Source: a virus. From it: a stretch of DNA of 64,000 bases. The stretch lies in IMG/VR virus record IMGVR_UViG_3300031555_005516. One strand, 5' to 3'. This document shows positions 13,757 to 51,559 of this stretch, piece by piece (positions within the stretch are counted from its first letter, which is position 1; each line of letters begins with the position of its first letter). The translations under genes and the position numbers were made by a program. The notes under the pieces are model-generated. The model searched no databases and had not been told where the DNA came from. It worked only from the letters and a program-made list of their open reading frames with translations.

Positions 13757-13790
13757 ATATATGTAATAAAGAAAGAGAGGAAATAAAAAT

Positions 13791-14880: not shown

Positions 14881-14890
14881 TAAGCATTTA

Positions 14891-14922
14891 GAAGCGACGC
14901 ATCTGCGCCGCTTCTTTTTTAT
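14891..14922 (+). terminator. rho-independent terminator
   Basis: hairpin gaagcgacgcatctgcgccgcttc + tttttt. Confidence 0.75.
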
Positions 14923-14950
14923 TGATTTTTTAAATTTTATATGTTATAAT
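14922..14950 (+). promoter_or_regulatory. Class II promoter
   Basis: TTGATT 14922-14927, TATAAT 14945-14950. Confidence 0.65.
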
Positions 14951-14981
14951 ATATATAGAAATAATGAAAGAGGAAATAAAT

Positions 14982-19178: not shown

Positions 19179-19253
19179 ACGGGATTAACTCAGCGGAAGA
19201 GTAATCGCCTTCTAAGCGATAAGCCAAAGGTTCGAATCCTTTATCCCGTGCCA
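19179..19253 (+). tRNA. tRNA-Arg(TCT)
   Basis: acceptor acgggat/atcccgt, anticodon stem atcgc/gcgat, loop cttctaa, T-arm aaagg-ttcgaat-ccttt, encoded CCA. Confidence 0.7.
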
Positions 19254-19342
19254 CAAGGACAACATGGGGAATGTAGTAAGCGTCTCGCCGCAAAAGGAGA
19301 CCAGATGACCGTGCTACCCGTTCGGCGGTTGGAAGTAAATAT

Positions 19343-19418
19343 GCGCCACTAGCTTAGGTGGTAAAGCAGCTGATTCTTAATCAGCAGACCCAAGGTTCGA
19401 GCCCTTGGTGGCGCACCA
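19343..19418 (+). tRNA. tRNA-Lys(CTT)
   Basis: acceptor gcgccac/gtggcgc, loop ttcttaa, T-arm caagg-ttcgagc-ccttg, CCA encoded. Confidence 0.75.
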
Positions 19419-19546
19419 AATGCGATATAAACCTCATCTCTATTCGGGTTTATATAAAGACTGAAAGAAGTGTTTAAACATAGAGATAAAAACACTAGCA
19501 AAGGACAACTCTATCAGAATCGCCTTAGATACCTTTGCATTTTTAT

Positions 19547-19621
19547 GCGGGATTAGTTTAATGGACAGAACGTGGCGCTACGGACGCCAAGACAAGGGTT
19601 CGATTCCTTTATCCCGTGCCA
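19547..19621 (+). tRNA. tRNA-Arg(ACG)
   Basis: acceptor gcgggat/atcccgt (G1.U72), anticodon stem tggcg/cgcca, loop ctacgga. Confidence 0.65.
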
Positions 19622-19714
19622 ATACACAACCGACGGACAAGGCTTAGGCGTATGAAACAGGACGGTGGGACGCGTGTGGTCGAGTTTGTGTTAATAAACA
19701 AAAGGAGAGAGGAA

Positions 19715-19873
19715 ATGAGTAATAAAAAGCCGCTTGAAGCAAAAGAGACTCAAGCTATGCGTAAAGAAAGAATGCGCAACTCGCCCTCTCTGCATACAAG
19801 AGTAATTGAAAGTAAGAAGAAACATAATCGCAAGCGTGAAAAGGCGCACGACTGTCGCTCTATGGAAGATTAG
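19715..19873 (+). CDS. small highly basic protein
   Basis: 52 aa from ATG 19715 after RBS aaaggagagagg; ends in TAG then continues 11 codons to TAA if TAG is read. Confidence 0.3.
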   Translation: MSNKKPLEAKETQAMRKERMRNSPSLHTRVIESKKKHNRKREKAHDCRSMED

Positions 19874-19952
19874 GGTAAAAATTTTTTCAAAAGTAATTAA
19901 AGTATTAAAAGAAATTTTAATATAATAATACCCACTCAGAAAGGAGAGGCTT

Positions 19953-20198
19953 ATGGGTTGGAAAAGAAGTAGAGACCAAAGAAGACGAGATAAACACTGT
20001 TATTCCCAAACCAAAACTTGGTATGGTAAAGGTGTTTACTATGATGAAGAAAAAGGTATTTATCGCAGATATCAAATGCCAGAGCGAGTTCGCTTTGTTA
20101 AGCGAAAATGTAATCGCGCTGTCCGTCGCTATAAAGGCGATTTAGGCAGCAAAGGAAGATATCGTAAAATTTCTGAGTTTTGGTGGGAGGTTTTATGA
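19953..20198 (+). CDS. small basic protein
   Basis: 81 aa, RBS aaaggagagg. Confidence 0.35.
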   Translation: MGWKRSRDQRRRDKHCYSQTKTWYGKGVYYDEEKGIYRRYQMPERVRFVKRKCNRAVRRYKGDLGSKGRYRKISEFWWEVL

Positions 20199-20205
20199 GA
20201 GATAT

Positions 20206-20280
20206 AGGGGATTGGTGTAACGGCTAGCATACGCGGCTCCAACCCGCTTGGTCTGGGTTCGAATCCTAGGTCCCCTGCCA
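20206..20280 (+). tRNA. tRNA-Trp(CCA)
   Basis: acceptor aggggat/gtcccct, loop ctccaac, T-arm ctggg-ttcgaat-cctag, CCA encoded. Confidence 0.65.
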
Positions 20281-20334
20281 AAAACATTTTAATCCATATC
20301 TTAAGGCATTTAAAAGTAATTTCTTGCGCAATTA

Positions 20335-20363
20335 TTGATTTTTATAAAAAAATATGATATAAT
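20335..20363 (+). promoter_or_regulatory. Class II promoter
   Basis: TTGATT 20335-20340, TATAAT 20358-20363. Confidence 0.65.
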
Positions 20364-20403
20364 ATATATATGTAATAATGAGAGAGGAAGAAAAGAAAAA
20401 AAA

Positions 20404-20622
20404 ATGAAAGCAAAAATAAGACTTGATACAATGCGTGATGTTCAAGAGTTTGTTAACATCACAACTAAGATGGAAGGCGCAGTTCATATCACCGATGGAG
20501 CGGGGCTTAAGGTTAATGCAAAATCATTGCTTGGCGCACTTTATGCAATGGAGTTTGATGAACTCTGGTGCGAAGCAGAGAATGATATTTATCGAAATAT
20601 AAGCGATTTTATTATCGTTTAA
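20404..20622 (+). CDS. hypothetical protein
   Basis: 73 aa from ATG 20404 after RBS gagaggaag. Confidence 0.35.
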   Translation: MKAKIRLDTMRDVQEFVNITTKMEGAVHITDGAGLKVNAKSLLGALYAMEFDELWCEAENDIYRNISDFIIV

Positions 20623-20632
20623 TCATTCTCTA

Positions 20633-20661
20633 TTGATTTTATTAAAAAAATATGATATAAT
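20633..20661 (+). promoter_or_regulatory. Class II promoter driving non-coding leader + tRNA cluster
   Basis: TTGATT 20633-20638, TATAAT 20656-20661; no ORF for ~370 nt downstream. Confidence 0.6.
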
Positions 20662-20667
20662 ATATAT

Positions 20668-21037
20668 ACAATAGAAAAGCAAAGAAGCAAAAAGTGAACG
20701 GAGTTGCGTAGTCCCGTGAAAGTCTGAAAGACAACTACGCTTGGTATAGTCGCAAGGACTGCATGAGGTCTGCGTGACATTGGGAGAATACTCAACTCCT
20801 ATGAAAAAATGAGCGTGGCTTCCTCGTGACGGAGCTGACGTTGTGGGTGTGAAAGAGAGAGAACCCTCCGCATAGGAGCTGCATTTACTTTTGTTCTCCA
20901 ACCTGCAAGCGAATTGCAAAAGTGGGTGAATAAAGGCGGGAAATACCTGTAAGCATCAGTAGACAACCGTTAGGAGTCTGAAAATGCTTGTGTACACACG
21001 CGGTGGGGATAACCGCGATACGAACCCCTTGGAATAT
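20668..21037 (+). ncRNA. GC-rich non-coding transcript upstream of tRNAs (candidate structured RNA)
   Basis: ~50% GC in a 35% GC genome, no ORF, promoter immediately upstream. Confidence 0.3.
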
Positions 21038-21111
21038 GGGACCTTAGCTCAGATGGTAGAGCAGTAGAATGGATAAGCTATGTGGCAACGGTTCGAGTCC
21101 GTTAAGTCCCT
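21038..21111 (+). tRNA. tRNA with canonical acceptor/D/T arms but aberrant anticodon arm (identity unresolved)
   Basis: gggacct-ta-gctcagatggtagagc...aacgg-ttcgagt-ccgtt-aagtccc; anticodon region gtagaatggataagctat gives only a 4-bp stem with an 8-10 nt loop. Confidence 0.45.
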
Positions 21112-21324
21112 CTTATGTATAGGTTCACGATAATCCTATATTAGTAAAATCGTTTAGATAAACCCGCCGTTGATGGAGTGACGGTGTAGGGTATTTAATG
21201 AAGATATGGCGCAACAAATTACCCGTTTGTGAGTTGCGAGGTGGCATAATCAAAGGGCGGTTAGGGAGTAATCCGAGAGAAAACACCACGCTACTTGATG
21301 AGCGTTAAATGCATCAAGGCATGC

Positions 21325-21401
21325 GGTGCCGTTGAGAAGTGGTTTAACTCCTAGGGTTTTCATCCCTATATTCGCAGGTTCGAATCCTGTCGGCATCACC
21401 A
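21325..21401 (+). tRNA. tRNA-Glu(TTC)
   Basis: acceptor ggtgccg/cggcatc, anticodon stem taggg/cccta, loop ttttcat, CCA encoded. Confidence 0.6.
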
Positions 21402-21451
21402 GAAACGCGGTCAGAGGTACAGCGCGTAATCGAAATTACTGTCCCTCATAT

Positions 21452-21526
21452 GGAGCTTTAGTTAAGTGGTTACAACGAGGCGTTCTCAGCGCTTAGGCGA
21501 AGGTTCAATTCCTTCAAGCTTCACCA
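21452..21526 (+). tRNA. tRNA-Glu(CTC) (tentative)
   Basis: acceptor ggagctt/aagcttc, anticodon stem aggcg/cgctt, loop ttctcag, T-arm gaagg-ttcaatt-ccttc. Confidence 0.5.
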
Positions 21527-21850
21527 TATTAATGCCGCCCATCAACTAATAAGAGCGCCGATGGGGAAGAGTTAATCTCTTAAGGTCGCGCCACTCCTGT
21601 CCGAGTGGGAGTATAAATAAAAATCAGGCGTACAGTGCCAACTTGGCTGTACTTAATGGGAAGTTGGGATAAGGTTCCGAGGGTACTGTAAACTCTCACT
21701 TTATATCGCGGATGGGCATAGTGCTCACCAGAGCCTCATAAGCTCAGGGTGATCGGGGCAGTACCGATATCCGCACCCATAAATCCAAGAGAGGCGGCGA
21801 TGGGTAACTGCCGGCTTGGCTGTAGCATGCACTGGCGCCTCATTTTATAT

Positions 21851-21940
21851 GCAAGATTGGCGGAATAGGTTATACGCGCCTGTTATAGGGACGGGTTATA
21901 TACTCCATTAATGCTGGTTCGATTCCAGCATCTTGCTCCA
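21851..21940 (+). tRNA. tRNA-Leu(TAG), type II (long variable arm)
   Basis: acceptor gcaagat/atcttgc perfect, D-arm gcggaataggttatacgc resembles Leu tRNAs, loop tataggg, T-arm gctgg-ttcgatt-ccagc, 90 nt. Confidence 0.55.
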
Positions 21941-22017
21941 GTCCTCAGAGAACAAATGTCGAGGTTAAAATAGATGTGTGGTTGACTGACCTAAAGTTAT
22001 TTTATATGGGCGATTAA

Positions 22018-22106
22018 ACCGTTAAGATAGGCGGGTTAGACTGTAAATCTAGCGTCATTGTGACTCGAGTGGGTTTGATTCCCTCATCGCCCACCAATGA
22101 AATTTT
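22018..22106 (+). tRNA. tRNA-Tyr(GTA), type II
   Basis: acceptor gggcgat/atcgccc perfect, anticodon stem ttaga/tctag, loop ctgtaaa, long variable arm, CCA encoded. Confidence 0.6.
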
Positions 22107-22128
22107 AATCAATTACTATGAAACTTCT

Positions 22129-22157
22129 TTGATTTTTACAAAAATTTATGATATAAT
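22129..22157 (+). promoter_or_regulatory. Class II promoter
   Basis: TTGATT 22129-22134, TATAAT 22152-22157. Confidence 0.65.
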
Positions 22158-22192
22158 ATATATGTAAGATGAAAGAGAGGAAAAAAGAAAAA

Positions 22193-22537
22193 ATGAGTGT
22201 TGATTATGAGTCAGTTTTAATTTATGGATATAAAATATCTAAAAGTGAAATTAAGCGCCTTGAGGAAGAAACAGGTAAGTTCATAGAAGAGTTCTGCGAT
22301 AAGTACGATGGAACTGACAAGTACTCATTTATCACAGATAATGCCTATGGCAACTATGGTGATTACTATTTTGGAGTCACTCTTGGTCGAGAAATTGATC
22401 TTGACTCAATAGACGCTATCTGTTGGTTTGAATATGAAACAGATGCTATTGATAAAGAATTTGAAAATGCTTTTGGAGATATGTCTTTTGCAGATACTCA
22501 TCATCCAATGATGTATCATTTTGTTCGCGTCTGTTAA
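22193..22537 (+). CDS. hypothetical protein embedded in tRNA array
   Basis: 114 aa from ATG 22193 after RBS gagaggaaaaaag. Confidence 0.4.
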   Translation: MSVDYESVLIYGYKISKSEIKRLEEETGKFIEEFCDKYDGTDKYSFITDNAYGNYGDYYFGVTLGREIDLDSIDAICWFEYETDAIDKEFENAFGDMSFADTHHPMMYHFVRVC

Positions 22538-22556
22538 GGCGCAAAAGCCTCACTAT

Positions 22557-22644
22557 GAGGCGACACGGGGGAGTGGCGGAATTGGCGAGACGCCCGCGAC
22601 TTAAAATCGCGTACATTAGAAACGCTGTGAGTTCGAATCTCATC
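22557..22644 (+). tRNA. tRNA-Leu(TAA), type II
   Basis: acceptor gggggag/ctccccc perfect, anticodon stem cgcga/tcgcg, loop cttaaaa, A73, CCA encoded. Confidence 0.65.
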
Positions 22645-22973
22645 TCCCCCACCAGTCCCTTAAAGGGATCGATATCATACTCACCGATGAAAGCCAGATT
22701 CGGTATATAAATTAGTGGCGCTTCAAGTGGAAGGTTGTGTGTAAACCGATTAAGAAGAGAAAACGCAAGTGGAACACACAATACATAAGGTATGGGAATA
22801 AAGCGGCCCCACTAAGTAAGAGCAGCTTAGAGCGAATGCCTTAACAGGAGAAGGACAACTCCCCAAAAGCGCCCAACATTACGCAGAGGGAAAAACCCAA
22901 CAACTGGCTCACTGACGGGTTGTAAAACACAGTGACAAGATAAGGGCGTATGTTGGCGCAGCTTATCACTTAT

Positions 22974-23066
22974 AGTGGGGTAAGCCTAATTGGTAAGGCA
23001 GTAGGTTGCTAACCTACCAGTAATCGAGTAATCGGTGTGTGAGTTCAAGTCTCACCCTCGCTGCCA
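22974..23066 (+). tRNA. tRNA-Ser(GCT), type II
   Basis: acceptor agtgggg/cctcgct (2 G.U), anticodon stem gtagg/cctac, loop ttgctaa, long variable arm, G73. Confidence 0.6.
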
Positions 23067-23587
23067 GCTGTCGTTAATGCGGCGACATAAAAGGTGAAAC
23101 TCCCTAAGTTGGAAGCGTATTGGTGGACCATCCACAATCAGAAGTAGCGTTTGTCGATAGCGAATAGTCGAATCGTTGCAGTCTTTACAAGGCGCCATAT
23201 GGGACTGCGCAGAGTACGATAACCTCTGCTTTATATGGAGGGTTAATTGCGACGGCTCGCAACACCGTCTTGAAAACGGTTGGTACGGCTAGTACCCGTA
23301 TGGGGATCGACACCTCAGCTCTCCGCCAGAGGCTGGCACGCCGCCATAATTTGGATTGCCCAAAGATGCGTGCATCTATATAGAAACACCTGTAAGCAAT
23401 AAGCAGGTCTGGACGCAGATAAAAAGTAAAACGGTTAAGCGTAAGTCGACAACGCGGAAAAGTGGAATAGAGGCAACGCCGATCCACTTAAAGTTTCTAT
23501 TTTCGTTGGAGTAATCCAACTCTTGGTAGAGCAAATGGAACCATAAGGAAAAGCAATACGCGGCTGGCAACTTACTGCCACTTATAT

Positions 23588-23666
23588 AGGAGAGTAGCAC
23601 AGATGGTTAGCGCACAGTCCTGATAAGACTGAGGTCGGTTGAGTTCGAGTCTCCCCTCTCCTACCA
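23588..23666 (+). tRNA. tRNA-Ile(GAT)
   Basis: acceptor aggagag/ctctcct, anticodon stem cagtc/gactg, loop ctgataa, CCA encoded; T-stem partially mismatched. Confidence 0.5.
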
Positions 23667-23687
23667 AAATTTCAAAAGAAAAGAGAA

Positions 23688-23760
23688 ATAGTGGTTCGAA
23701 TCCATTCCTGTCTCCTAACCGGGGATGGGTAGTTTAAGTGGTTAAAACACTCATCGCGAG
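23688..23760 (+). ncRNA. orphan tRNA 3'-half-like (T-arm agtgg-ttcgaat-ccatt + acceptor) followed by tRNA 5'-half-like segment (ggggatgggtagtttaagtggttaaaac)
   Basis: 3' half has no upstream partner; ggggatg can pair with the upstream cattcct, suggesting a permuted, split or degenerate tRNA. Confidence 0.25.
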
Positions 23761-24030
23761 CTTTTGAAATTTGTTACAAGGAGTCATGACCTTGTCGTAA
23801 CATTGGTTAGCTATCCTAATGGTAAACCATGAGCGCGAAAATGCTCTAAAAACGATAGCAAGGGCAACCTATTGTCCGACCCCTGCCGATTATCAGCATA
23901 AGCGCAGTGCACGGCGCAAATAGGAGGATTGTCAGTTGTCTTATCTAACTATCTAAACTGAATAGTCAAGGGATACGAAGATCCCTCCCCGTAGCTGTTC
24001 GCGGGAGGTAACGAAGAGAGCAGCATCTAT

Positions 24031-24108
24031 GGGGGACTAGCTCCAATTGGCTAGAGCACGACACCTGCAATGTCGGGGTTATGAGTTCGAATCTCATGTC
24101 CTCCACCA
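24031..24108 (+). tRNA. tRNA-Ala(TGC)
   Basis: acceptor gggggac/gtcctcc with G3.U70 (Ala identity element), anticodon stem cgaca/tgtcg, loop cctgcaa, CCA encoded. Confidence 0.65.
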
Positions 24109-24112
24109 TTAT

Positions 24113-24188
24113 GCGTCTTTAACTCAGTTGGTAGAGTGCCATCCTTACAAGTTGGAAGTCGGCGGTTCGAGTCCGTCAAAACGCACCA
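24113..24188 (+). tRNA. tRNA-Val(TAC)
   Basis: D-arm actcagttggtagagt, loop cttacaa, T-arm ggcgg-ttcgagt-ccgtc, CCA encoded. Confidence 0.6.
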
Positions 24189-24363
24189 GTGCGTTGTCAC
24201 GCACGAGTATATTTTTACCTTTTTGCGAAAGCGGTCTTAGAAGGGCTCGTTTCACCCCATCGTTTTGGTTCAACTCCAAAATAAGCAAAAAGGGTTTGCG
24301 AATATGGTACATTGATAGTATGTGACCTTTCTTAGGTTGAGAGGTGGGTTCGATTTCCCACCT

Positions 24364-24392
24364 TTCTCCCATAATTGATTTTTAATAAAAAT
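24364..24392 (+). promoter_or_regulatory. Class II promoter inside tRNA array
   Basis: TTGATT 24364-24369, TATAAT 24387-24392. Confidence 0.6.
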
Positions 24393-24572
24393 TTTGTTAT
24401 AATATATATATACAAAATGAGAAAAGAAAAAACAAATACATATTGGTGACTGGATTTAGCGGTAAGACCTGTTCAGATAAACGCGTATCAACAGGCGCAA
24501 GTTAATCAGTCTTAAATCAGGAAACTTTCCTTTGGGCGTGCATTGCCCGCTCTGAGCCAGTCCTTTCTATAT

Positions 24573-24652
24573 AGTCTCGTAGCTCAGTCTTTGGCTAGAG
24601 CGCTAGTCTGTCACACTAGAGGTCGCGGGTTCGAGCCCCGTCGGGACTGCCA
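24573..24652 (+). tRNA. tRNA-Asp(GTC)
   Basis: acceptor agtctcg/cgggact, anticodon stem ctagt/actag, loop ctgtcac, T-arm gcggg-ttcgagc-cccgt, CCA encoded. Confidence 0.6.
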
Positions 24653-25342
24653 GAGGTGCCAATGCCTAATCATTGGTCAGGAGGCTAACCTGTGCGGTAA
24701 TACGCAGAGCGTCCGGGGTCCCGCATCCGTGAGCAACGGGGGAAAGATAATAGGTGCCACGATGCCGATAACAATTTGGGAGTGAATATTACTTGATGTA
24801 ATTAGCTCATTCTTAAAATCCTAGGTCTGAATGAGATACAGCTCTGTGAGGCAATAAAATGCAGTGGTAAATGGAGTTTGATGAACAGCCTATTCCACCC
24901 AGCTCTAAGGGTGAGTACTCGAGGTCTGGAGCAACGAGTAAATAAACAAAGTCTCCAGAGTCGTTTTGCGGTGTCGGAGAAAACCGCCATAGAGCGCAGG
25001 CTTTGAAGGTCATGAGGGATTAGAGCAATTGCCCCACTGGTAAGGAAGAGGAATGGAAATGCGCGGAAGTTCGAACACCTTCAAATCTACTAAGACCTCT
25101 GGAGGGGATGTTCCTCTCACATCAACAGAGCGAGTAGAGAGCGAAGTCGCAAACGCTATATAAGAAGACGAGTAATAGTGTTGAGTCTCAAGACACAGGC
25201 AGCGGTGGGCCAAATATCCGCTGGAGTTTCGCTTCCAAGATGAAATGCGAGATTTATGATGTGGCTTAGTAGTAGCGTAGGTTTATCCGACAAAGCTATG
25301 AAAGGCGCGGGCCCAGCTTCCCGTATCCAAGAGCTGGAATTT

Positions 25343-25418
25343 CGGGGTGTAGCCTAGTTGGTTAGGCGCTTGCTTTGGGAGCAAGATCACGCGGGTTCGA
25401 GTCCTGTCACTCCGTCCA
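25343..25418 (+). tRNA. tRNA-Pro(TGG)
   Basis: D-arm gcctagttggttaggc, anticodon stem cttgc/gcaag, loop tttggga, CCA encoded. Confidence 0.65.
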
Positions 25419-25737
25419 ATAACTGTGCCTAAAAGATTCTTAGGGCAACGATTGGCGCCAATCCTTCTCCCAGTAGTTGGATAATTAGCGCATTAGATAC
25501 CTCCTATATAGAGTTCGGAGAGTGTTTCTCTTGCTGGGTATAAAAACTCTCCTCCTCTCTTTCTACATATGATTCTTTAGCCAAGTTCAGTTAAGGCAGC
25601 AGGCTGCAACCCTGTGATCGTTGGAGCGAAGCCAACAAGAATCTCCATTGTTTTACCGTAGCAAAGAAAAACGGTATGCAGAGACTTTCATCTAACCACC
25701 ATTAGATGAAAGCAACCTCCAAGTTAAAGAAAAATCA

Positions 25738-25766
25738 TTGATTTTTTTAAAAAATTATGATATAAT
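25738..25766 (+). promoter_or_regulatory. Class II promoter
   Basis: TTGATT 25738-25743, TATAAT 25761-25766; followed by 37-codon ORF 25801..25914. Confidence 0.55.
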
Positions 25767-25940
25767 ATATTTGTTAAGATAAAGAAAGGAAATAAAAGAA
25801 ATGAGAACAATTGAAAGCCTTCAGGCAAGAATAGAATTGCTTAAAAGCCGCAAACGCGAAAATGGTAGAATTATCCGTAAGTTAGAGCGGCAGATTAGAT
25901 CACTTCAAAAGTAATAATCGTGCTGCTACCACTTCGACAT

Positions 25941-26027
25941 GAGCGTGTAGTACAGCGGCGAGTACAAGGGACTTTTAATCCCTCGACATTATGTCCATCG
26001 CGGGTTCGATTCCCGCCACGCTCACCA
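25941..26027 (+). tRNA. type II (long-variable-arm) tRNA with anticodon TTT (Lys codon AAA) - unusual combination
   Basis: acceptor gagcgtg/cacgctc perfect, anticodon stem aggga/tccct perfect, loop cttttaa, variable arm cgacattatgtccatc, T-arm gcggg-ttcgatt-cccgc, A73, CCA. Confidence 0.5.
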
Positions 26028-26056
26028 AAAATAAAAAGGTAGCGTAAGGATAATTT

Positions 26057-26085
26057 GTTGAAAAAATAAAAAATTTATGATATAA
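26057..26085 (+). promoter_or_regulatory. Class II-like promoter (TTGAAA -35)
   Basis: TTGAAA 26057-26062, TATAAT 26080-26085. Confidence 0.5.
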
Positions 26086-26274
26086 TAAATATGTAAAATA
26101 AAGGCGATGCAATATAAACTCCTGACCCGAGTTTCCATCAACAAATTCTCGATCCAAAATTGCTCGAAAGAGGTCGCTAATCGTGGTTGAAATAGAGGAT
26201 TGGTGGACAAGTGGACACATGCGGCTTTGACCCGCACGAAGAAGGGGCGGTACCTTCATCCTCTGCCAAGATAT

Positions 26275-26351
26275 TCTCGGTTAGCTCAGTTGGTAGTAGC
26301 ACAAAGCTGTTAACTTTGGGGTCTGAGGTTCAAGCCCTCAACCGAGAGCCA
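26275..26351 (+). tRNA. tRNA-Asn(GTT)
   Basis: acceptor tctcggt/accgaga perfect, anticodon stem caaag/ctttg, loop ctgttaa, T-arm tgagg-ttcaagc-cctca, CCA encoded. Confidence 0.7.
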
Positions 26352-26567
26352 ACAGTCAGTTTAATCTGGCAACCGCGAAGACATGGATTAGCACTAAACT
26401 ACCACCGACTCAGACCAAGGTGCGGCTTACCGCGATATGGTAACGAGGTATGTGGCTTGTGGCAAAGCGGGATAAAAATTGGCAAAGTAAGTGCTTATGA
26501 GACTTTCTCATAGTTTTCCTCCCTTTCATAACAGCTTGGGTTGTGCTGCAAACAACCTTCTAAAAAT

Positions 26568-26645
26568 GTCAGTCTAGCCCAATTGGTAGAGGCACTAGTC
26601 TTAGGAACTAGCAAGTGATGGGTCCGAATCCCTCGATTGACACCA
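26568..26645 (+). tRNA. type I tRNA with anticodon TAG (reads CUA; Leu-like anticodon on a short-variable-arm body)
   Basis: acceptor gtcagtc/gattgac, anticodon stem ctagt/actag perfect, loop cttagga; T-stem imperfect, T-loop tccgaat. Confidence 0.4.
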
Positions 26646-26649
26646 TGGA

Positions 26650-27280
26650 GCTACTTCCAAGCCGTAAGGTGAATGTAGATGACTTCTGGAGTATTCAGGA
26701 TCATAAGAGTACTAACCACGAGCCAACCTCGCAGCACGAGCACGAAAGCGTTGGTGACTATACGGTATCAATAGGCGAATCCGTACGCGCGACGAGGCAT
26801 GATGCGAAAAATCAAAAAGGTGGCAGCTTGCTCGAAACGATTATTGGAACTTGGACATAAATTAATTCGATATTGATGTGGAACGGTACTGCCAAAAACC
26901 AATCTGATCCAAGCGGAAACCGAAAGGTTGAAACATTAATATTCGATATAAGTAAATAACCTTGATTTCATTGAGTATTTTGAGGTGATTACTACTGAGA
27001 AAATCAGAGTAGGCTTGAGAGAGCGCTCACGAAAATGTAATTGAAATCAAATGTCGAGAAAATCGTGGATTTCGTCCACTCGAAAAGTAGTTTAGCGACG
27101 AAAAGTAGAGTGCGATTGGCGCCTAGGATGTGGTGTGGTTCTGGTAGACCTCTTAACGAATGTCTAAGCCAGATGTAGATTGAAAGATGAAACGGTTATC
27201 TACTCGAATTGTGGAAGGTAGCAAATACCCGATGCCCAAAAGAAGAAGATATGCGGTTGGCTGACCTAAGGCTTCACCTC
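26650..27280 (+). ncRNA. ~630 nt GC-rich non-coding region within tRNA array (candidate large structured RNA)
   Basis: no convincing ORF (track ORF 26615..26860 overlaps the tRNA and looks spurious); GC content much higher than the genome. Confidence 0.25.
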
Positions 27281-27282
27281 CC

Positions 27283-27367
27283 TATTTAATATGCACCTGT
27301 CGCATAGTGGCCGATTGCACTCGCCTTGTAAGCGAGAGACCATGTCCGCGTTGGTTCGAATCCAACC
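27283..27367 (+). tRNA. type II tRNA with anticodon TGT (Thr codon ACA) - unusual combination
   Basis: acceptor gcacctg/caggtgc perfect, anticodon stem ctcgc/gcgag perfect, loop cttgtaa, variable arm agaccatgtccgc, T-arm gttgg-ttcgaat-ccaac, CCA encoded. Confidence 0.5.
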
Positions 27368-27384
27368 AGGTGCTCCATGGCGTC

Positions 27385-41902: not shown

Positions 41903-41933
41903 TATATATGTAATAAGTTAAGAAATCAATATT

Positions 41934-42009
41934 GCGGAGTAGCCAAGCGGGAAGGCGGCACTCTCTAAAAGTGCATATGCGTGAGTTCGAATCTCACCTC
42001 CGCCGCCAT
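41934..42009 (+). tRNA. amber suppressor tRNA, anticodon CTA, tRNA-Gln-like body (tRNA-Sup(CTA) / Gln)
   Basis: acceptor tgcggag/ctccgcc (U1, G73 as in tRNA-Gln), D-arm gccaagcgggaaggc = tRNA-Gln D-arm, anticodon stem gcact/agtgc perfect with loop ctCTAaa, T-arm gtgag-ttcgaat-ctcac, CCA encoded. Confidence 0.7.
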
Positions 42010-43368: not shown

Positions 43369-46300
43369 ATGACACAAAATTATCAAGCAGATAATATTAA
43401 ATCTCTTGATTACTTTGAGCATATCCGAAAGTATCCCGGTATGTATATAGGAAGTAAGGATGCAAAAGGATTACTTCATTGTGTAAAAGAGATAATTTCT
43501 AATAGTATTGATGAATATTTAAATGGAGCTGGTAATCAAATAAAAGTAACTATTTTACCAAACAATGGTATTCGCATAGAAGATAATGGGCGCGGCATTC
43601 CGCATGGTAAACATCCAAGTGGTTGTAGTGTGCTTCAAGCTTGTTTTGGTATTGCAAATACTGGCGGTAAATTTGATAATGCTACTGGAGAATCTGGATA
43701 TAATACTTCTGGCGGAGAACACGGAACTGGAGGTAAGGCTGTAAATGCTTTATCTAAATCTATGATTGTAAAAACCCGCCGCGAAGGCATTGAAGAAATC
43801 GTAGAATTTTCAAGAGGTCAATTTATTTCTCATAAAGAGAATAAAATTGACAAATCGATCACTGGAACTTCTGTTGAATTCTATCCTGACCCAGAAGTCC
43901 TTGAAACAGTAGAGTTTGATATTAAAGGTATTCGAGATATGATTCGAGAATTTAGCTTTTTATGCAAAGGGCTACATTTTATTTATACCGTTTTAGATAC
44001 AAAAGAAGATTTCTATTCTGAGCGCGGACTTGCAGATTATATGGATTATTTAAATCCAAAAGGAGAGTTTATAGCTGATCCTTTCTACTTCAATAGCGAA
44101 GAAGGTAAGTTTCAACTCGAGGTTGCTATTGGATATAGTAAATCTTATTCTTCTGTTATTAAACTATATACAAACAATATTCCCCAAGAAAAAGGAACTC
44201 ATTTGACAGGTTTTAAAACAGCTTGGACAATGGGATTAAATAATTTTGCAAGAGAAAATAAGTTAATTAAAGAAAAAGAAGAAAATCTTACTGGTTCAGA
44301 CTATGAAGAAGGTATGATTTTAATTCTAAACTTTAAGATGATTGATCCTGTTTTTAAAGGACAAAATAAAGAGGAGCTTAGTTCTTCTGAAGGTAGAACT
44401 TATGCGCAGAAGCTAACAACTCAAGCTCTTGGAGATTTAACATCTTCTTATAAAAATGCCTTTAAAACAATTATTGAAAAAGCCTTATCTGCAAGGAAAG
44501 CAAGAGAAGCTGCTAAAAAGGCGCGCGACGCGGCTCGAGGCGATAAAAAGAAAAAGGAAAAGGCGCTTAAGTTTGATTCAAAATTAGCAGACTGTTATTC
44601 AAAGGTTCGCGCTAACTGTGAAATTTACGTGACGGAAGGCGATAGCGCCTCCGGCAATATGAAAGCTGCCCGCGATAATGAGTTTCAAGCAGTGCTGCCC
44701 GTGCGCGGAAAGATATTAAATACGCAAAAAGCAGCCTTAGATAAAATTCAAAAGAATGCAGAAATTATGACTATGATTGAAGCCTTTGGTCTTAAAACCG
44801 ATCCGAAAACAATGAAGCTAACGTATGATAAAGACTCACTGCGCTATGGGAAGATTATTATAGCTGCCGATGCGGATGCAGACGGTGAACGAGTTTAAGT
44901 TGCGCCGATGAAAAACTTTACTGCTAACCAGCAGGGTATTGAAAAATTTAAAATTTTTGGTTAAAATTAGAATATGTGATTAGTACGATTTTCATATAAT
45001 AATAGAACAGAGATAAGAATTTTTCAATGCTAACGGGGAAGCCTGAGTATTGGTAATCCCGTGGGAACATTTATTAACTCTTATCTCCAAATACAAAAAG
45101 GAGATATATTATGATAGGAATTTATAAAATTACTAAAAAATCTAATGGAAAGTGTTATATTGGACAAACTAATGATATAAAAAGGCGCTTCTCTGAGCAT
45201 AAAAGAGGAGATAGAACCGATATCCCAGTAGACGTAGCTATTGGTTTATATGGAACTGAAGCTTTTGATTTTGAGATATTAGAAGAATGTTCATTAGAGC
45301 AATTAAATGAAAGAGAACAGTATTGGATTGCTTATTATAAAAGTTATCCAAATGGATACAATTGTAATCCCGGAGGAGAACAAGCATCTGTTGGTTCTTT
45401 AAATGGTAATGCAAAATTAAACGAAGAAGATGTTATGATAATTCGTAAAGCATACGCTAAGCATCTTCGCCAAAAAGATGTATATGAATTATTTAAAGAT
45501 AAAACTACTTTTAGTAACTTTCAATCTGTTTGGCAGGGTAGAACTTGGGCACACATTATGCCCGAGGTTTTTACCAAAGAGAATAAAGATTATTACATCT
45601 ATGAAAATAGCCGTGGCTCAAAAGGTAAAGATGCTCATTTTACAGATGAAGAAATTATTGCTATTCGCACTCGTTATATTAATGAAACTGCGAAGCAAAT
45701 TTATGAAGATTATAAAAACAGAGTCGCTTATCAAACTTTCCAAATGATTTTATGGGGTCGTTATTATGATAACCTTCCTATTTACAAGAAAAAAGAAAAA
45801 AAATGGGTTAATATTTGACCTGTATCGACTATTCCTTAAGCCTTCTGGGCAAGGAAGTAAGGCTGCTATTGGTACGCAGTTGGATTTTAGGAAACGAAGT
45901 CCATTAAATGCTGAAATGGTTTCCTCTCAAACAGAGAGTAAAAGATAGTCAGGAGAAATACTCAATTCTAATGTTTAATGGCACACATTAGAAACTTGTT
46001 TTACACATTTATATGGAATTTTTGCCCCGCTTTAATTGAAAATGGATATGTATATGCACTTGTGGCGCCGCTCTATAAGATTACGATGGGTAAAGATACT
46101 TATCTGTATTTAAGAGACGATAAAGAGTTGGCTGAGTTTCAAGAGAAAAATAGAGGAAAAAAGTATCAGGTCAATAGATTCAAAGGATTAGGCGAGATGT
46201 CAGAGGACGAGACTGAAATTCTTGTAGACCCAGGCTTAAGAGTGTTGAATCAGGTTACGGTTGAAGAAGCAAAGAAAGCAGATGTTTTGTTTGATCAGCT

Positions 46301-46373
46301 GATGGGCGTAGGAGTTGCAGCAAGAAAGAAATTTATTCAGGATCACAGTAAGGAGGCTAAGTATGGAGTATAA
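43369..46373 (+). CDS. gyrB: type II topoisomerase B subunit (GyrB-like), split by an intron: exon 1 43369..44886, exon 2 45981..46373
   Basis: exon 1 has GHKL ATPase motifs and ends ...KIIIAADADADG; exon 2 begins AHIRNLFYTFIWNFCPALIENGYVYALVAPLYK (cf. E. coli DADVDGSHIRTLLLTFF...ERGHVYIAQPPLYK); exon 1 ends in T, intron ends in G. Confidence 0.75.
44887..45980 (+). mobile_element. group-I-like intron in gyrB carrying a GIY-YIG homing endonuclease ORF
   Basis: 1094 nt insertion exactly inside the conserved Toprim DxDxDG|HIR motif; exon 1 3' U and intron 3' G; internal HEG 45111..45818. Confidence 0.6.
45111..45818 (+). CDS. intron-encoded GIY-YIG homing endonuclease
   Basis: MIGIYKITKKSNGKCYIGQTNDIKRRFSEHK...YWIAYYKS; 235 aa; no TAG. 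Confidence 0.7.
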   Translation: MIGIYKITKKSNGKCYIGQTNDIKRRFSEHKRGDRTDIPVDVAIGLYGTEAFDFEILEECSLEQLNEREQYWIAYYKSYPNGYNCNPGGEQASVGSLNGNAKLNEEDVMIIRKAYAKHLRQKDVYELFKDKTTFSNFQSVWQGRTWAHIMPEVFTKENKDYYIYENSRGSKGKDAHFTDEEIIAIRTRYINETAKQIYEDYKNRVAYQTFQMILWGRYYDNLPIYKKKEKKWVNI

Positions 46374-48699
46374 TAAAGTTGAATTAACACAAGAGTTATC
46401 AAATAACTGTATTGAGTACGCGGCCGCCGTGAATGAAGACCGCGCGATACCAGATGCTACAAGCGGTTTGAAACCCGTTGCAAGAAGAATTATCTATGGC
46501 GCATATGATTCGGGTAGAAGCTCCAATAAGCCTCATGTTAAGTGTGCAAATATCGTCGGTGATGTAATGGCTAGGTTCCATCCTCATGGAGATAGCTCCA
46601 TCTACGGCGCGCTTGTTCGCCTTGCACAGCCTTGGGAAATGAGATATCCGCTGATTGATTTCCACGGAAACATGGGTAATGTGGGAGGCGACGGCCCGGC
46701 GCATTATCGTTATACTGAGGCGCGCCTTGCTAAGTTTACAGAAGACGGACTATTGCAAGGATTAAAGAAGCGCAATGTGCGTTTTATGCGCAATTATGAT
46801 GAAACAACAGAAGAGCCTATGACTCTTCCTGCATTGTTTCCTAACTTACTTTGCAATCCGAATATGGGTATTGGATGGGCTATTGCTTGTAACTGGGCGC
46901 CACACAACTTAACCGAAGTCGCAGATGCAATTTTCGCATATATGGATGGCGCTGAGCCTATGTTGCCTGGACCTGACTTCCCAACAGGTGGTGTTGTAAT
47001 AAACAAAAATGACATCCCTGCAATAATGAAAACAGGTCACGGAACAGTAAAGGTTCGTGGTAGATATAATATTGAAAAGCAAAATATCGTCTTTTATGAA
47101 ATACCTTATGGAGTTCAAACAGAAGCTCTTCTTGCAGAAATTGGAAAGCTCTGTGATGCAAAAGAACTTGAAGGTATTGAGAATTTAAGAGACGAGAGTA
47201 ATAAGAAGGGTATGAGAATCGTTATCGAATGTGAGAAAGGCGCAAACCCTGACGCTATCGTAAAGCAATTGTTCGCAAAGACCGATCTCCAGTCCTCATT
47301 CTCGTATAACCAAGTCGCGCTTGTGGATAAGACTCCTACAGAGCTTAATTTGAAACAGTGTTGCGAGATTTATGTAAACCATAATCTGCTTTGTATTCAA
47401 AACGAAGCGCAGTTTGATTTGGAAAAGGCACAGGATAGACTTCATATCGTTGAAGGACTTCTTCGTGCATTGGAAGATATCGATAACATTATTGCGCTCA
47501 TTAAGAAATCTGCAAGTGCGACGGCCGCCAAGGATGCGTTAATCGCCACCTATAAGTTCTCCGAAGCACAGGCAAAAGCTATCGTAGATATGAAGCTTGG
47601 TAAGCTCGCTGGACTTGAAAAGGTTGAGTTGAATCAAGAGGCAGAAGAATTGCGCAAAGAAGTTGAGGAATTAAACACTCTCTTCCTTAATGAAACTAAG
47701 CAGCGTGAGGTATTGCGCGAGCGCCTTACTACATTTGTCAAGAAATATGGCGATGCGCGTAGAACCAGTCTTGAACAGATTGAGCTTCCTAAAGCAGAAA
47801 AGGAACTTGAAACTGTAGTGCCTGAAGATTGTGTTGTAATAGCTACGCAAAATGGTGACATTAAGAGAGTGCCTTCAAGTAGCTTTAAATTGCAGAGACG
47901 TAATGGCAAAGGGGTAAAGACAACAGATGACGCAATCCTTGATATGATTTCTACTAACACCGTTGATACCTTGATGTTCTTTACGGATAAGGGTAAGATG
48001 TATCGTCTCTTGGTAGATAAAGTTCCTACTGGAACCAATGCTTCTAAGGGTGGACGTATCGGCGCATTGATAAATCTTGAAGCAGATGAAAAAGTCGTAG
48101 CTATGACATCTCTATATCGCAAGAGCCAAGCAGAATATGTAATCTTTATTACAAAGCAGGGACTCTTTAAGAAGACTAAGTTAGAAGAATACCTTCAAAC
48201 TAAACGCACAACAGGTATTGCCGCAATTAAGTTTAAGGAAGGTGACTCGCTTGCCACTGTTACCTTTGCTAATGAAGAAGATTTTATCATCATTACAAAG
48301 CAGGGAATGAGTATTCGCTTTGAAACGAAAGATATCTCTCCTATTGGGCGCGTAACTTCTGGTGTAAAGAGCATTAAGTTAAATGATGGTGATGAAGTTT
48401 TGACTGGATTGCCTATTAAACACAAGACTGACACTCTTGCAACATTTAGCGCAAATGGCATGGGGCGCAAGACCCCGATTGAAGAATTCCCTGTTCAGGG
48501 CAGGGGTGGTAAAGGTCTAAAGATAGGAAGCGGAGACCTGTCCGGCGCAGCTCTTATCAGTGATGAAGATAACCTTCTCATAGTAGGTTCACCAAACAGT
48601 ATCTGTATATCAGCCACTGAAATTCCGCTTTTAGCGCGCACGGCGCAAGGTAATATAATGATTAAAAATAGCATTATTAAATCAGTAATAAAACTATAA
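46363..48699 (+). CDS. gyrA: type II topoisomerase A subunit (GyrA/ParC-like)
   Basis: start ATG 46363 after RBS aaggagg; IPDATSGLKPVARRIIYGAYD, HPHGDSSIYGALVRLAQPW, catalytic Tyr in AHYRYTEARL. Confidence 0.8.
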   Translation: MEYNKVELTQELSNNCIEYAAAVNEDRAIPDATSGLKPVARRIIYGAYDSGRSSNKPHVKCANIVGDVMARFHPHGDSSIYGALVRLAQPWEMRYPLIDFHGNMGNVGGDGPAHYRYTEARLAKFTEDGLLQGLKKRNVRFMRNYDETTEEPMTLPALFPNLLCNPNMGIGWAIACNWAPHNLTEVADAIFAYMDGAEPMLPGPDFPTGGVVINKNDIPAIMKTGHGTVKVRGRYNIEKQNIVFYEIPYGVQTEALLAEIGKLCDAKELEGIENLRDESNKKGMRIVIECEKGANPDAIVKQLFAKTDLQSSFSYNQVALVDKTPTELNLKQCCEIYVNHNLLCIQNEAQFDLEKAQDRLHIVEGLLRALEDIDNIIALIKKSASATAAKDALIATYKFSEAQAKAIVDMKLGKLAGLEKVELNQEAEELRKEVEELNTLFLNETKQREVLRERLTTFVKKYGDARRTSLEQIELPKAEKELETVVPEDCVVIATQNGDIKRVPSSSFKLQRRNGKGVKTTDDAILDMISTNTVDTLMFFTDKGKMYRLLVDKVPTGTNASKGGRIGALINLEADEKVVAMTSLYRKSQAEYVIFITKQGLFKKTKLEEYLQTKRTTGIAAIKFKEGDSLATVTFANEEDFIIITKQGMSIRFETKDISPIGRVTSGVKSIKLNDGDEVLTGLPIKHKTDTLATFSANGMGRKTPIEEFPVQGRGGKGLKIGSGDLSGAALISDEDNLLIVGSPNSICISATEIPLLARTAQGNIMIKNSIIKSVIKL

Positions 48700-49326: not shown

Positions 49327-49569
49327 ATGCACAGTAAACATAATGAAGATTATACTATTCATTATAATGGAGATTTTAGTCAAGTGTTATGTGTGAATAA
49401 TAGAACAAATACGACAAGAGAAATTCCGCCTGCTTTATTTGCATTGCTATATGCCACAATAGCAGAGAATATTAAAGACAAACAAGATGATTTGTTCAGC
49501 GATTTAATTTGGGAGCAAGAAAAAATGGGCGCAAGAAATCAAAGTTATTGGGAGGAAGAAAATGAGTAA
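49327..49569 (+). CDS. hypothetical protein
   Basis: 80 aa. Confidence 0.4.
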   Translation: MHSKHNEDYTIHYNGDFSQVLCVNNRTNTTREIPPALFALLYATIAENIKDKQDDLFSDLIWEQEKMGARNQSYWEEENE

Positions 49570-51559
49570 TCTTAAAGAAAGAATGATTTTCCTTGTTGAT
49601 TATCTAAATAAATATCAGGATTTATATGATAAAGGTATGCCTGCAATTTCAGACTCTGCTTGGGATGAAGCATATCTTGAACTTAAAGAACTTGAAATTG
49701 CTATAGGAGAAGTGCTTCCAAACTCTCCAACTCAAAAGATAAGATATACAGTTGTAAGCGAGCTTAAAAAGGTAAAGCACGATGAAGACTTCCCTATGCT
49801 CTCTCTTGATAAAACAAAAGAGATTTCTGATATCGAAAATAAATTCGAAAATAAGCAATGGATTGCAATGGCTAAATGTGACGGTCTATCGTGTCGTCTT
49901 ATCTATCAGGATGGACGCTTAATTCAAGCAGCGACAAGAGGCAATGGTGAGGTAGGCGAAGATATCACGCACAATGCTAAGGTTGTGAAAAATATACCTA
50001 AGTGGATTCCACATGATGGCAGACTTGTAGTTGATGGAGAAATAGTCTGTTTGGCGCAAGACTTTGCACCTTTTGCAGAAGAATATGCTAACTCAAGAAA
50101 TTTTGCATCAGGCAGTATTAGATTGCTTGATGCGGCGGAGTCCGCCAAAAGAAATTTAAGCTTTATTGCATGGGACTGTATTTATGACGACGAAAGCGAA
50201 ACTATCGAGCTTCACCAACAGCTTGAGAATTTGGCTCTTTATGGGTTTACTATTGTTGATTATGTTAATGGCCCTAATGACTGGGAGTTAATCATCAAAG
50301 GAATTCAGTTAAATGCTCAAAATGAAGGCGTTCCCATTGATGGGGTTGTCTTTAAGCTAAACAATAAGAGCGAATATTATGCAGCTGGCATTACCGCACA
50401 TCATCCGAAAGCAGCGATTGCATTCAAATTTTATGATGAAGAATATGAAACTGAGCTATTAGATATTGAATGGAGCATGGGCAAAACAGGAGTGCTTAGT
50501 CCAGTTGCTATTTATCGAGAAATAGAAATGGAAAATACTATGTGCTCAAGGGCAAGTCTTCATAATATCAACACTTTAGTCGAGATTCTTGGTGAATATC
50601 CCTATGTAGGACAAAAGATAAAAACATATAAGGCGTTAATGATAAATCCTCAAGTAAGTTGGGGGCAAAAAGCTGAGGAAATATTGGGCGCGGATCCGGG
50701 TTATTATCTTAATGATTCAGAAATTAAATTCTTATTCCCGCCTAAGATATGCCCAATTTGCGGCGCGCCAACAGAAATCAGAGAGAGTGATAGTGGAACT
50801 GTTGAGCTGTATTGTTCAAGCGATACTTGCGAAGGAAAATTAATAAATCGTTTGGAGCATTTTTGTTCTAAGAAAGGTCTTGATATTAAAGGCTTATCTA
50901 AAGCGACTTTAGAGAAACTTATTGACTGGGGTTGGGTAACAAGAATAATGGATCTATTCTATTTGCATCAGCGTAGAAGAGAATGGATTGAAAAACCTGG
51001 ATTTGGAATCAAGAGTGTAGATAAAGTATTAGATGCTATTGAAACTGCGCGCCATACGACCCTTGAGAAGTATTTGAGTGCCATCAGTATTCCACTTATT
51101 GGTAAAACTTATGCGCGTCAGTTAGCGCAGACTTATGATGATTATGATATCTTTAGATTAACAATGCGTAGCGGAGCGGATTTTACGGAGCTTGATGGTT
51201 TTGGCCCAGCAATGCATGATGCTATTGTTAATTTTGATTATACAGAAGCTGATATGATGTATGACAGAGGTTTTATAGTGATTGAAGATGGACCTGGAAT
51301 AAGCGCACTGGAAAATTCTGGAAATGCGCTCGAAGGTAAAACTTTCTGCGTCACAGGTCGAGTTCACATCTGGAAGAATCGAGATGAACTTTCGGCAGCA
51401 GTAACCGCCGCAGGTGGCAAGGTAACATCATCAGTATCTTCAAAAACTGACTACCTTGTTAACAATGACATAAATTCTACTTCAAGTAAAAACCAAAAAG
51501 CAAAAGAACTAAATATACCAATAATTACAGAACAGGAGCTTTTAGATATGTTAAATTGA
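49562..51559 (+). CDS. ligA: NAD-dependent DNA ligase (LigA)
   Basis: 665 aa; adenylation motif KCDGLSCRL (KxDG), Cys4 zinc finger CPICGAPTEI...CSSDTC, C-terminal BRCT-like domain GKTFCVTGRV...GGKVTSSVSSKTDYLV. Confidence 0.85.
   Translation: MSNLKERMIFLVDYLNKYQDLYDKGMPAISDSAWDEAYLELKELEIAIGEVLPNSPTQKIRYTVVSELKKVKHDEDFPMLSLDKTKEISDIENKFENKQWIAMAKCDGLSCRLIYQDGRLIQAATRGNGEVGEDITHNAKVVKNIPKWIPHDGRLVVDGEIVCLAQDFAPFAEEYANSRNFASGSIRLLDAAESAKRNLSFIAWDCIYDDESETIELHQQLENLALYGFTIVDYVNGPNDWELIIKGIQLNAQNEGVPIDGVVFKLNNKSEYYAAGITAHHPKAAIAFKFYDEEYETELLDIEWSMGKTGVLSPVAIYREIEMENTMCSRASLHNINTLVEILGEYPYVGQKIKTYKALMINPQVSWGQKAEEILGADPGYYLNDSEIKFLFPPKICPICGAPTEIRESDSGTVELYCSSDTCEGKLINRLEHFCSKKGLDIKGLSKATLEKLIDWGWVTRIMDLFYLHQRRREWIEKPGFGIKSVDKVLDAIETARHTTLEKYLSAISIPLIGKTYARQLAQTYDDYDIFRLTMRSGADFTELDGFGPAMHDAIVNFDYTEADMMYDRGFIVIEDGPGISALENSGNALEGKTFCVTGRVHIWKNRDELSAAVTAAGGKVTSSVSSKTDYLVNNDINSTSSKNQKAKELNIPIITEQELLDMLN

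Follow-up and report, generated by a model that had tools for sequence, protein, structure and literature searches.

A probable td-like group I intron with an I-TevI-like endonuclease gene in the Toprim motif of a phage gyrB-like gene

Two phage group I introns of subgroup IA2 are the closest described counterparts of the element reported here: the td intron of T4, which interrupts the thymidylate synthase gene and carries the GIY-YIG endonuclease I-TevI in its P6 loop, and the crystallised orf142-I2 intron of Twort, which has no open reading frame (ORF). The topoisomerase B-type family is also known in divided form, since in T4 gp39 and gp60 are translated separately and gene 60 involves ribosome hopping, with no splicing and no ribozyme. 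In gut and rumen metagenomic phages such as Jug, the replication and packaging genes hold many group I introns along with endonucleases, either stand-alone or intron-borne; terL, nrdD and DNA polymerase are split there, and splicing was confirmed by metatranscriptomes (PMC12880540). In that work topoisomerase IV was among the intact core genes, and the introns, with a mean of about 206 nt, were found with subtype covariance models (PMC12880540). Here we examined a 64,000-nt stretch of viral DNA (IMG/VR record IMGVR_UViG_3300031555_005516), referred to as the window, in which a gyrB-like gene is very probably interrupted by a mobile td-type group I intron (44887-45980) that carries the gene of an I-TevI-like endonuclease and is predicted to be spliced out.

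The gene, the insert and the adjoining subunit gene are laid out as follows.

43369..44886, + strand: exon 1 of a GyrB/ParE-like type IIA topoisomerase B subunit; 506 codons ending ...DADADG; Pfam HATPase_c, DNA_gyraseB and Toprim
44887..45980, + strand: group I intron, subgroup IA-like (T4 td type); 1,094 nt, starting GAACGAG and ending UUUAAUG
45111..45818, + strand: GIY-YIG homing endonuclease with an I-TevI-like catalytic domain; 235 aa, 708 nt, in the P6 loop
45981..46373, + strand: exon 2, AHIRNLFYTF..., 130 codons plus stop; completes Toprim and has the GyrB C-terminal domain
46363..48699, + strand: GyrA/ParC-like A subunit, directly downstream; Pfam DNA_topoisoIV (6e-132) and GyrA C-terminal repeats

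The exon-1 ORF (43369..44898) reads ...GKIIIAADADADG and ends IIIAADADADG-ERV*. As the first-pass annotation of this DNA had stated, the GyrB frame is broken after DADADG, with the glycine codon ending at 44886; the unspliced frame adds ERV and stops at 44896-44898. The HIR continuation was likewise placed correctly, resuming at 45981, 1,094 nt further on, behind an ATG (45978) that is not conserved at this site. The exon-2 ORF (45978..46373, 131 aa) starts M-AHIRNLFYTFIW and matches Pfam DNA_gyraseB_C. Removal of 44887..45980 brings GGU|GCA together in frame, joining ...GCAGACGGU to GCACACAUU at the predicted exon junction, and gives a product of 636 aa with zero stops. This product holds HATPase_c, DNA_gyraseB, Toprim and DNA_gyraseB_C, the full type IIA B-subunit set in one polypeptide. 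The break does lie within the Toprim catalytic motif, as had been proposed: exon 1 alone reaches positions 1-71 of the 96 in the Pfam Toprim model (46.4 bits), stopping after DADADG, compared with 1-88 of 96 (57.1 bits) for the spliced product.

The alignment of the spliced product with its homologues, which had been suggested as a check, is gap-free over the junction for 17 uninterrupted sequences (DADxDG|AHI(K/R)NLFYTF), and 74 of the 80 best IMG/VR relatives give a single continuous match over the break point. Because of these two observations, the interruption of gyrB at 44886/45981 is real and far beyond chance. The downstream gyrA gene shares its first 11 nt with the end of exon 2 and has AAGGAGG 6 nt before its ATG. 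An exact-protein look-up of the exon-1 product returned no record, and a megablast of the gyrB region against 50,697 sequenced phage records gave zero matches, so that no close relative is present among them.

A group I core, whose absence had been named in advance as grounds for giving up the intron interpretation, is detectable in the insert. P1 and P3 to P9 could be placed together with P7.1 and P7.2, and the helices covary across 58-63 relatives. The elements read as follows.

44883..44907, + strand: P1 hairpin, exon CGGU plus intron GAAC against GUU(G)CGCCG; 8 bp, by direct reading
44913..44916, + strand: P3 5' strand AAAC, pairing with 45919-45922 (GUUU)
45033..45062, + strand: P4 and P5; P4 45033-38/45057-62, P5 45041-43/45052-54, with A-rich J4/5 and J5/4; AACGGGGAAGCC...GGUAAUCCCGU
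45063..45820, + strand: P6, closing pairs G45063-C45820 and G45064-C45819; the endonuclease ORF lies within the loop
45826..45831, + strand: P7 5' strand CGACUA (R element), pairing with 45946-45950 and G45952; A45951 is bulged
45832..45856, + strand: P7.1, UUCCUU/AAGGAA with an inner GCC/GGC extension
45863..45879, + strand: P7.2, CUGC/GCAG, with the conserved 9-nt loop UAUUGGUAC
45882..45902, + strand: "P7.3", an optional extra hairpin, GGAU/GUCC, loop UUUAGGAAACGAA; present in about a quarter of family members
45919..45922, + strand: P3 3' strand GUUU, right behind a conserved GAAAUG
45924..45938, + strand: P8, CUCUC AAACA GAGAG
45939..45952, + strand: J8/7 (UAAAAGA) and P7 3' strand UAGUC-A-G (S element), by direct reading and pair counts
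45953..45980, + strand: short P9 (GAG AAAUA CUC) and a 17-nt 3' tail to the terminal G45980 (..UUUAAUG|)

P1 fixes the 5' splice site just after U44886, which forms a wobble pair with G44904; the hairpin as drawn has a folding energy of -9.2 kcal/mol (z = -2.5). Exon 1 ends in U (44886) and the intron in G (45980), both bases as claimed by the first-pass annotation. The same holds more widely: in family members at other sites and in other genes the P1 guides match their own exons, every exon ending in U, and a terminal G is found at the 3' splice site of all gyrB-hosted relatives in which that site is fixed by protein alignment. A P10 of 3 bp is possible between U44901-G44902-C44903 and the exon-2 GCA (45981-45983).

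The layout of the window intron is that of the two reference introns. Their sequences were taken from their own records, and Twort was compared by reading (pairwise MAFFT alignment missed the homologous elements). The td intron reads AACGGGGAACC..CAAUCCCGUG, and the P4-P5 motif of the window, AACGGGGAA..AAUCCCGUG, is near-identical to AACGGGGAACC...CAAUCCCGU of td. The order P4-P5/P6/GACUA-P7.1-GUAGG-P7.2-CGAAAxG-P3'-P8-J8/7-UAGUC is common to td, Twort and the window, with an ORF looped out of P6 in td and in the window. J6/7 and P7 read UGUAUC-GACUA in the window, and the GACUA/UAGUC core of P7 is identical in sequence in td and Twort. The 3' part of td runs GACUA-UCCC UUUG GGGA-GUAGG-GUC AAGU GAC-UCGAAAC-GAUAGA (P3')-P8-GAGAUA-UAGUC. 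The 3' strand of P3 takes the same position in the window as in td (UCGAAAC-GAUAGA) and in Twort (CGAAAUG-GGGAUU). In Twort the string GACUAUUCC..GGAAGUAGG-hairpin-CGAAAUGG-P3'-P8-..AUAGUC agrees with the window almost word-for-word, and Twort has a P9 with a GAAA loop, as do most members of the family to which the window intron belongs. The td intron ends AUAAUG| and shares its final ..UAAUG| with the window. On the common order and wording of these elements, td with I-TevI is the nearest described system.

This family (loci L084-L203) comprises at least 120 IMG/VR stretches, recognised by a pattern of two conserved blocks (CTGTATCGACTA-N(10-40)-CTATTGRTACG). Sixty-three non-redundant, ORF-trimmed members with less than 90% mutual identity were aligned, and pairs were counted on a trimmed gap-free alignment of 58 sequences. 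The alignment was built around the proposed helices and is hence biased towards them, and controls in which the helices were slid served as comparison. In the 58 sequences 97.5% of the cells pair, against 34-40% in the slid controls, and 401 cells are changed on both sides, against 32-67. The covariation score is 0.484, compared with 0.08-0.10 in the controls, and was reached by 0 of 500 shuffles. The covariation signal is robust nonetheless, in view of the slid controls and of the variety of pair types, which reaches six at a single pair.

Among the individual helices, P3 pairs in 91.7% of cells and P7.1 in 100%, each with both-side changes in all five pairs, and P7.2 in 99.6%, with both-side changes in three pairs. 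Our own count over the 63 members gives 91% for P3 (28-50% when slid), 99.5% for P4 and 92.5% for P5. In the 58-sequence alignment one pair of P4 alternates between GC (37 sequences) and AU (21), and P7 shows no variation in five of its six pairs, while the sixth pairs in 56 of 58 sequences. The stem of P8 differs in sequence in each relative with the hairpin retained, "P7.3" pairs in 93% of cells among the 14 members that have it, and the P6 of ORF-less relatives is 12-82 nt long at the same position. The first-pass description of the insert as a self-splicing-type group I intron is thus supported by the placed core helices, the covariation and the td/Twort layout, from which we infer that it splices.

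Relatives of the intron are also found in genes other than gyrB. Over its 3' part the insert shares 77% identity with the spacer that divides a DNA polymerase gene in Enterococcus phages EF1 and EF5, and it matches Lak megaphages too. In Enterococcus phage EF5 (L001, MF001361 127368-128192) the homologous intron lies between DNA polymerase fragments and is annotated only as "hypothetical protein"; the one in Lak-A1 (L002) is unannotated. Rfam models applied to the homologous loci L001-L003 gave weak matches to other introns and zero at the homologous position. The best match is that of the ORF-less relative L143, in which positions 75-316 match the full length of RF00028 (model 1-253, 28.7 bits, E=1.7e-5) with P1, P4, P5, P6, P7, P8 and P9 aligned as placed here, at a score below the gathering value of 50 bits. 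L143 also holds two unrelated canonical group I introns (13518-13821 and 14842-14969, - strand; Rfam 59.3 and 52.0 bits), and phages such as this one host several intron types. The intron family is large, mostly unannotated and missed by standard Rfam screening. A fuzzy motif scan of the window revealed no second intron of the family.

The region between P3 and P4 sets the window apart from both reference introns.

44919..44936, + strand: hairpin A, between P3 and P4; 96% of cells pair
44938..45028, + strand: hairpin B, long and variable, closed by GGU.../...GCU; adjoins J3/4 (UAA) and P4; -16.4 kcal/mol, z = -3.2

The P2 of td is placed between its P1 and P3, with P3 directly against J3/4; Twort has a canonical P2 and its P3 is likewise beside J3/4. 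In the window, by contrast, the 5' strand of P3 (44913-16) follows P1 directly with no P2 in between, and J3/4 is reached only after hairpins A and B (44919-45028). Thus, of the features that define IA2, P7.1 and P7.2 are present between P7 and P3', whereas the window lacks a P2 between P1 and P3 and a P3 5' strand beside J3/4. At the position of hairpin B, only one of the 67 listed family members lacks a hairpin of 16-101 nt.

Hairpin A is predicted to form a kissing loop with P7.2, in which A44927, C44928 and C44929 pair with U45873, G45872 and G45871, respectively. Across the family the conserved 9-nt P7.2 loop reads UAUUG(A/G)UAC, of which G(A/G)U is complementary to A(U/C)C in the loop of hairpin A. 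Of the 63 sequences, 49 have U-A as the middle pair and 14 have C-G, with no exceptions; the search pattern permitted either purine at the P7.2 position and left hairpin A unconstrained. This differs from td, where P7.2 has a 3-bp stem and a 4-nt loop, and from Twort, which has no kissing between hairpin A and L7.2. No description of hairpins between P3 and P4, or of such a kissing arrangement, was found in the literature that could be searched, which is incomplete, and newness is not claimed. The td intron differs further in its extended P9.1 and P9.2, whereas the window has a minimal P9.

The ORF in P6 encodes a protein of the GIY-YIG family. It exceeds the cut-offs of Pfam PF01541 (46.8 bits, cut-off 22.6) and of TIGR01453, "group I intron endonuclease" (71.5 bits, cut-off 56.05), and it matches phrog_7168 over its full length (1.7e-29) and the I-TevI structure PDB 1LN0 (3.8e-7). 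The first-pass annotation had called it a free-standing GIY-YIG endonuclease; the family assignment stands, while "free-standing" does not apply in the technical sense, as the protein is encoded inside the intron. Over aa 3-113 the catalytic domain shares 32% identity with T4 I-TevI, and the GIY, YIG, Arg, Glu and Asn positions are all retained. Past residue 113, in the presumed C-terminal DNA-binding part, there is no detectable sequence similarity to I-TevI, whose own C-terminal domain has a zinc finger, a minor-groove helix and a helix-turn-helix. The likeness to td extends to the endonuclease family and to the kind of target, a catalytic motif in a gene of DNA metabolism, although the host gene is thymidylate synthase in td and gyrB-like in the window.

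Upstream of the endonuclease gene, a hairpin covers its Shine-Dalgarno (SD) sequence.

45082..45106, + strand: SD-sequestering hairpin, 7 bp UAUCUCC/GGAGAUA; covers AGGAG 45099-45103; -7.8 kcal/mol, z = -2.0

This hairpin may mask the endonuclease SD and so have a regulatory role. It is reminiscent of I-TevI, for which translational control is described. Similar pairings are visible in two relatives, L013 and L029.

The position of the insert is shared by other gyrB introns. Family introns occur in gyrB homologues at three points within 12 nt of the DxDxDG codons, namely, GGU|GCN (the site in the window), GACGU|CGAUGG and GAUGCU|GAU (carriers L013, L021, L029, L093, L095, L112, L115, L116, L119, L131, L137, L176, L183, L201 and L202). 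Three of these, L013, L021 and L029, have homologous inserts of about 1 kb, each with an endonuclease beginning MIGIYKI..., and L201 has two introns in one gyrB gene. A further family site in gyrB is the KG|LGEM motif (L008, L017 and others), and L018 has an insert near gyrB residue 450. Five homologues share the codon boundary of the window, with introns ending ..AUG| in the window, L095 and L029, ..CACG| in L176 and ..AACG| in L119, the last being an intron without an ORF. The intron-less target context, of the L004 type, reads ...GATGCGGATGTAGACGGTGCGCATATT.... The phage gyrB gene is therefore an intron hot spot.

The T4 counterpart falls on the same boundary. The first coding piece of T4 gene 60 comprises 46 codons up to ...TDADHDG, and the 50-nt bypass gap starts exactly there (NC_000866 2458-2990, L204), which makes the gap boundary homologous to the splice site of the window (44886/45981; DADADG|AHIR). 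T4 39/60 and the window are both footprints of homing-endonuclease elements in a topoisomerase B-type subunit (10.1101/2022.08.31.505936). They are unlike in that the T4 endonuclease is of the HNH type (MobA, in the mobA cassette) and in that the T4 arrangement involves no ribozyme.

By analogy with characterised group I introns, the proposed course of events would begin with one pre-mRNA, in which the intron would fold as a ribozyme. A free guanosine bound in P7 would attack the phosphate after U44886, held in P1 by the U•G44904 wobble. The terminal G45980 would then occupy the guanosine site, with P10 (GCA with UGC) aligning exon 2, and ligation as GGU|GCA would restore DADADG-AHIR and yield the 636-aa B subunit, the presumed partner of the adjacent GyrA/ParC-like protein. 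The endonuclease would be made from the P6 loop, from its own SD that the hairpin could mask. In mixed infections it would be expected to cut intron-less alleles near DxDxDG, so that repair from the intron copy would spread the intron (homing). For enzymes of the I-TevI type the expected cut lies about 20-25 bp upstream of the insertion site.

Several observations weigh against splicing of this intron. In relatives P9 is a hairpin of 6-7 bp, most often with a GAAA loop, and P9.0 forms between the 3 bases after UAGUCA and the 3 before the terminal G (GUG/CAC, GUA/UAU, GCG/CGC). The P9 of the window has only 3 bp, its P9.0 cannot form, and its tail, which holds the near-repeat UAAUG-UU-UAAUG, is 17 nt long compared with about 9 in the family. 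The 3' splice site of the window thus rests on the terminal G and the 3-bp P10, and splicing could be inefficient; because of this degenerate P9/P9.0, a small share of the probability is kept for readings without splicing. Moreover, the check with Rfam group I models that the first-pass annotation had proposed went the other way: at gathering thresholds the whole window gave tRNAs only, 44700-46200 gave no group I match even at E<=10, and none of 11 ORF-less relatives reached the 50-bit RF00028 gathering score at the family position. The low RF00028 score is explained by the 708-nt ORF in P6, the P7.1/P7.2 insertions and the displaced P3 strand. The absence of an Rfam match in the window, together with its short P9, missing P9.0 and longer tail, which none of the aligned relatives shows, could indicate a decaying relic, in which the intron is incompetent for splicing and the gyrB copy is a pseudogene or poorly expressed. 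We regard a relic as improbable. Both exon reading frames are intact and conserved, the endonuclease ORF is intact with its catalytic residues kept, and the gyrA partner is intact, its start overlapping the end of exon 2. Of the 72 family columns with 95% conservation or more among the other members, the window retains 71, a figure that overstates independent conservation, as about 40 of the 72 were preset by the search pattern and filters. P9.0 and P9 are peripheral elements of group I introns, outside the catalytic core.

The 3' features of the window would also agree with a gene that is split without splicing by a mobile endonuclease cassette, its halves of 509 aa (..ERV) and 131 aa (M-AHIR) being translated apart and assembled non-covalently, like T4 gp39/gp60 or the split NrdA of Aeromonas phage Aeh1. 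The stop lies three codons past the break and the ATG (45978) exactly at the point of resumption, and T4 tolerates a topoisomerase B-type split (39/60) some 20-30 residues upstream of the break point in the window. A strong, conserved ribosome-binding site before exon 2, which the first-pass annotation had said would speak for separate translation, was not found: there is no SD within 5-12 nt of ATG 45978, whereas the starts of exon 1, the endonuclease and gyrA have AAGGAG at 7-8 nt (8 for exon 1). The sole nearby AGGAG is 22 nt upstream of the ATG, within P7'/P9, and the ATG itself is missing in two of the five same-site homologues (L176 and L119). Separate translation is therefore unlikely. 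The ribozyme core is fully intact, which would be unexpected were splicing dispensable, and the break lies inside the DxDxDG metal-binding loop. The added C- and N-terminal tails that split subunits of the T4 type retain (10.1101/2022.08.31.505936) are absent, leaving just the three-residue read-through tail. Taken with the points in its favour, a split gene of this kind has a low probability, marginally above that of the relic.

An intervening element of another class, that is, an intein, a group II intron or a translational bypass gap, has a negligible probability, even with the 50-nt gap of T4 gene 60 at the homologous codon boundary. For an intein, there is the in-frame stop at 44896 with no in-frame extension, and Pfam revealed no Hint/intein domain in the three encoded proteins. 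For a group II intron, no group II model matched at E<=10, and the insert encodes no reverse transcriptase. For a bypass gap, the insert measures 1,094 nt and holds a structured ribozyme and a gene; to our knowledge, this length far exceeds any bypass gap.

Other features of the window were also recorded. It has 20 tRNA genes, 19 of them in an array of about 8 kb (19179-27374) and one at 41933-42005, just upstream of the gyrB region. An 830-aa protein with the Major Vault Protein shoulder domain (PF11978, 3.5e-25) is encoded at 30771-33263 and is directly followed by a stand-alone HNH endonuclease gene (PF13392) at 33297-34070. The surrounding module includes a full sigma-70-type factor with regions 1.2-4 (35083-35979), an NAD-dependent DNA ligase with a BRCT domain (49562-51559) and a DnaB-like helicase (58918-60462).

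With regard to earlier work, no description of a group I intron in a phage gyrB/topoisomerase gene was found in the literature searched, whose incompleteness makes this weak evidence of novelty; a gyrB-like host gene is also absent from a 2014 review of bacterial group I introns. The evidence supports a td/I-TevI-like group I intron of the ordinary mobile-element kind in a phage gyrB-like gene, and the understanding of how group I introns function is unchanged by it. The parts that deserve follow-up are the structural variant and the coincidence with T4 gene 60. A broader interpretation, which we put forward tentatively and hold to be less likely true than false, is that the intron represents an undescribed IA structural subclass, abundant in gut and rumen phages, in which P2 is replaced by a two-hairpin domain kissed to an enlarged P7.2 loop (3-4 bp). 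Under this proposal that architecture would keep the family below the Rfam threshold, the DxDxDG codons of phage topoisomerase B subunits would be its preferred target, and the T4 gap might mark an old hot spot of homing; a more speculative version is that the gap descends from an element once present there.

For annotation, the finding would turn two "fragments" and a "hypothetical" spacer into one spliced gyrB/parE-like gene with an intron-encoded endonuclease. Dozens of IMG/VR contigs would need the same re-annotation, as would isolates such as Enterococcus phages EF1 and EF5. The type IIA topoisomerase B subunit thereby joins the phage genes colonised by td-like introns, and the coincidence with the gap of T4 gene 60 offers a comparative handle on why this site attracts mobile elements.

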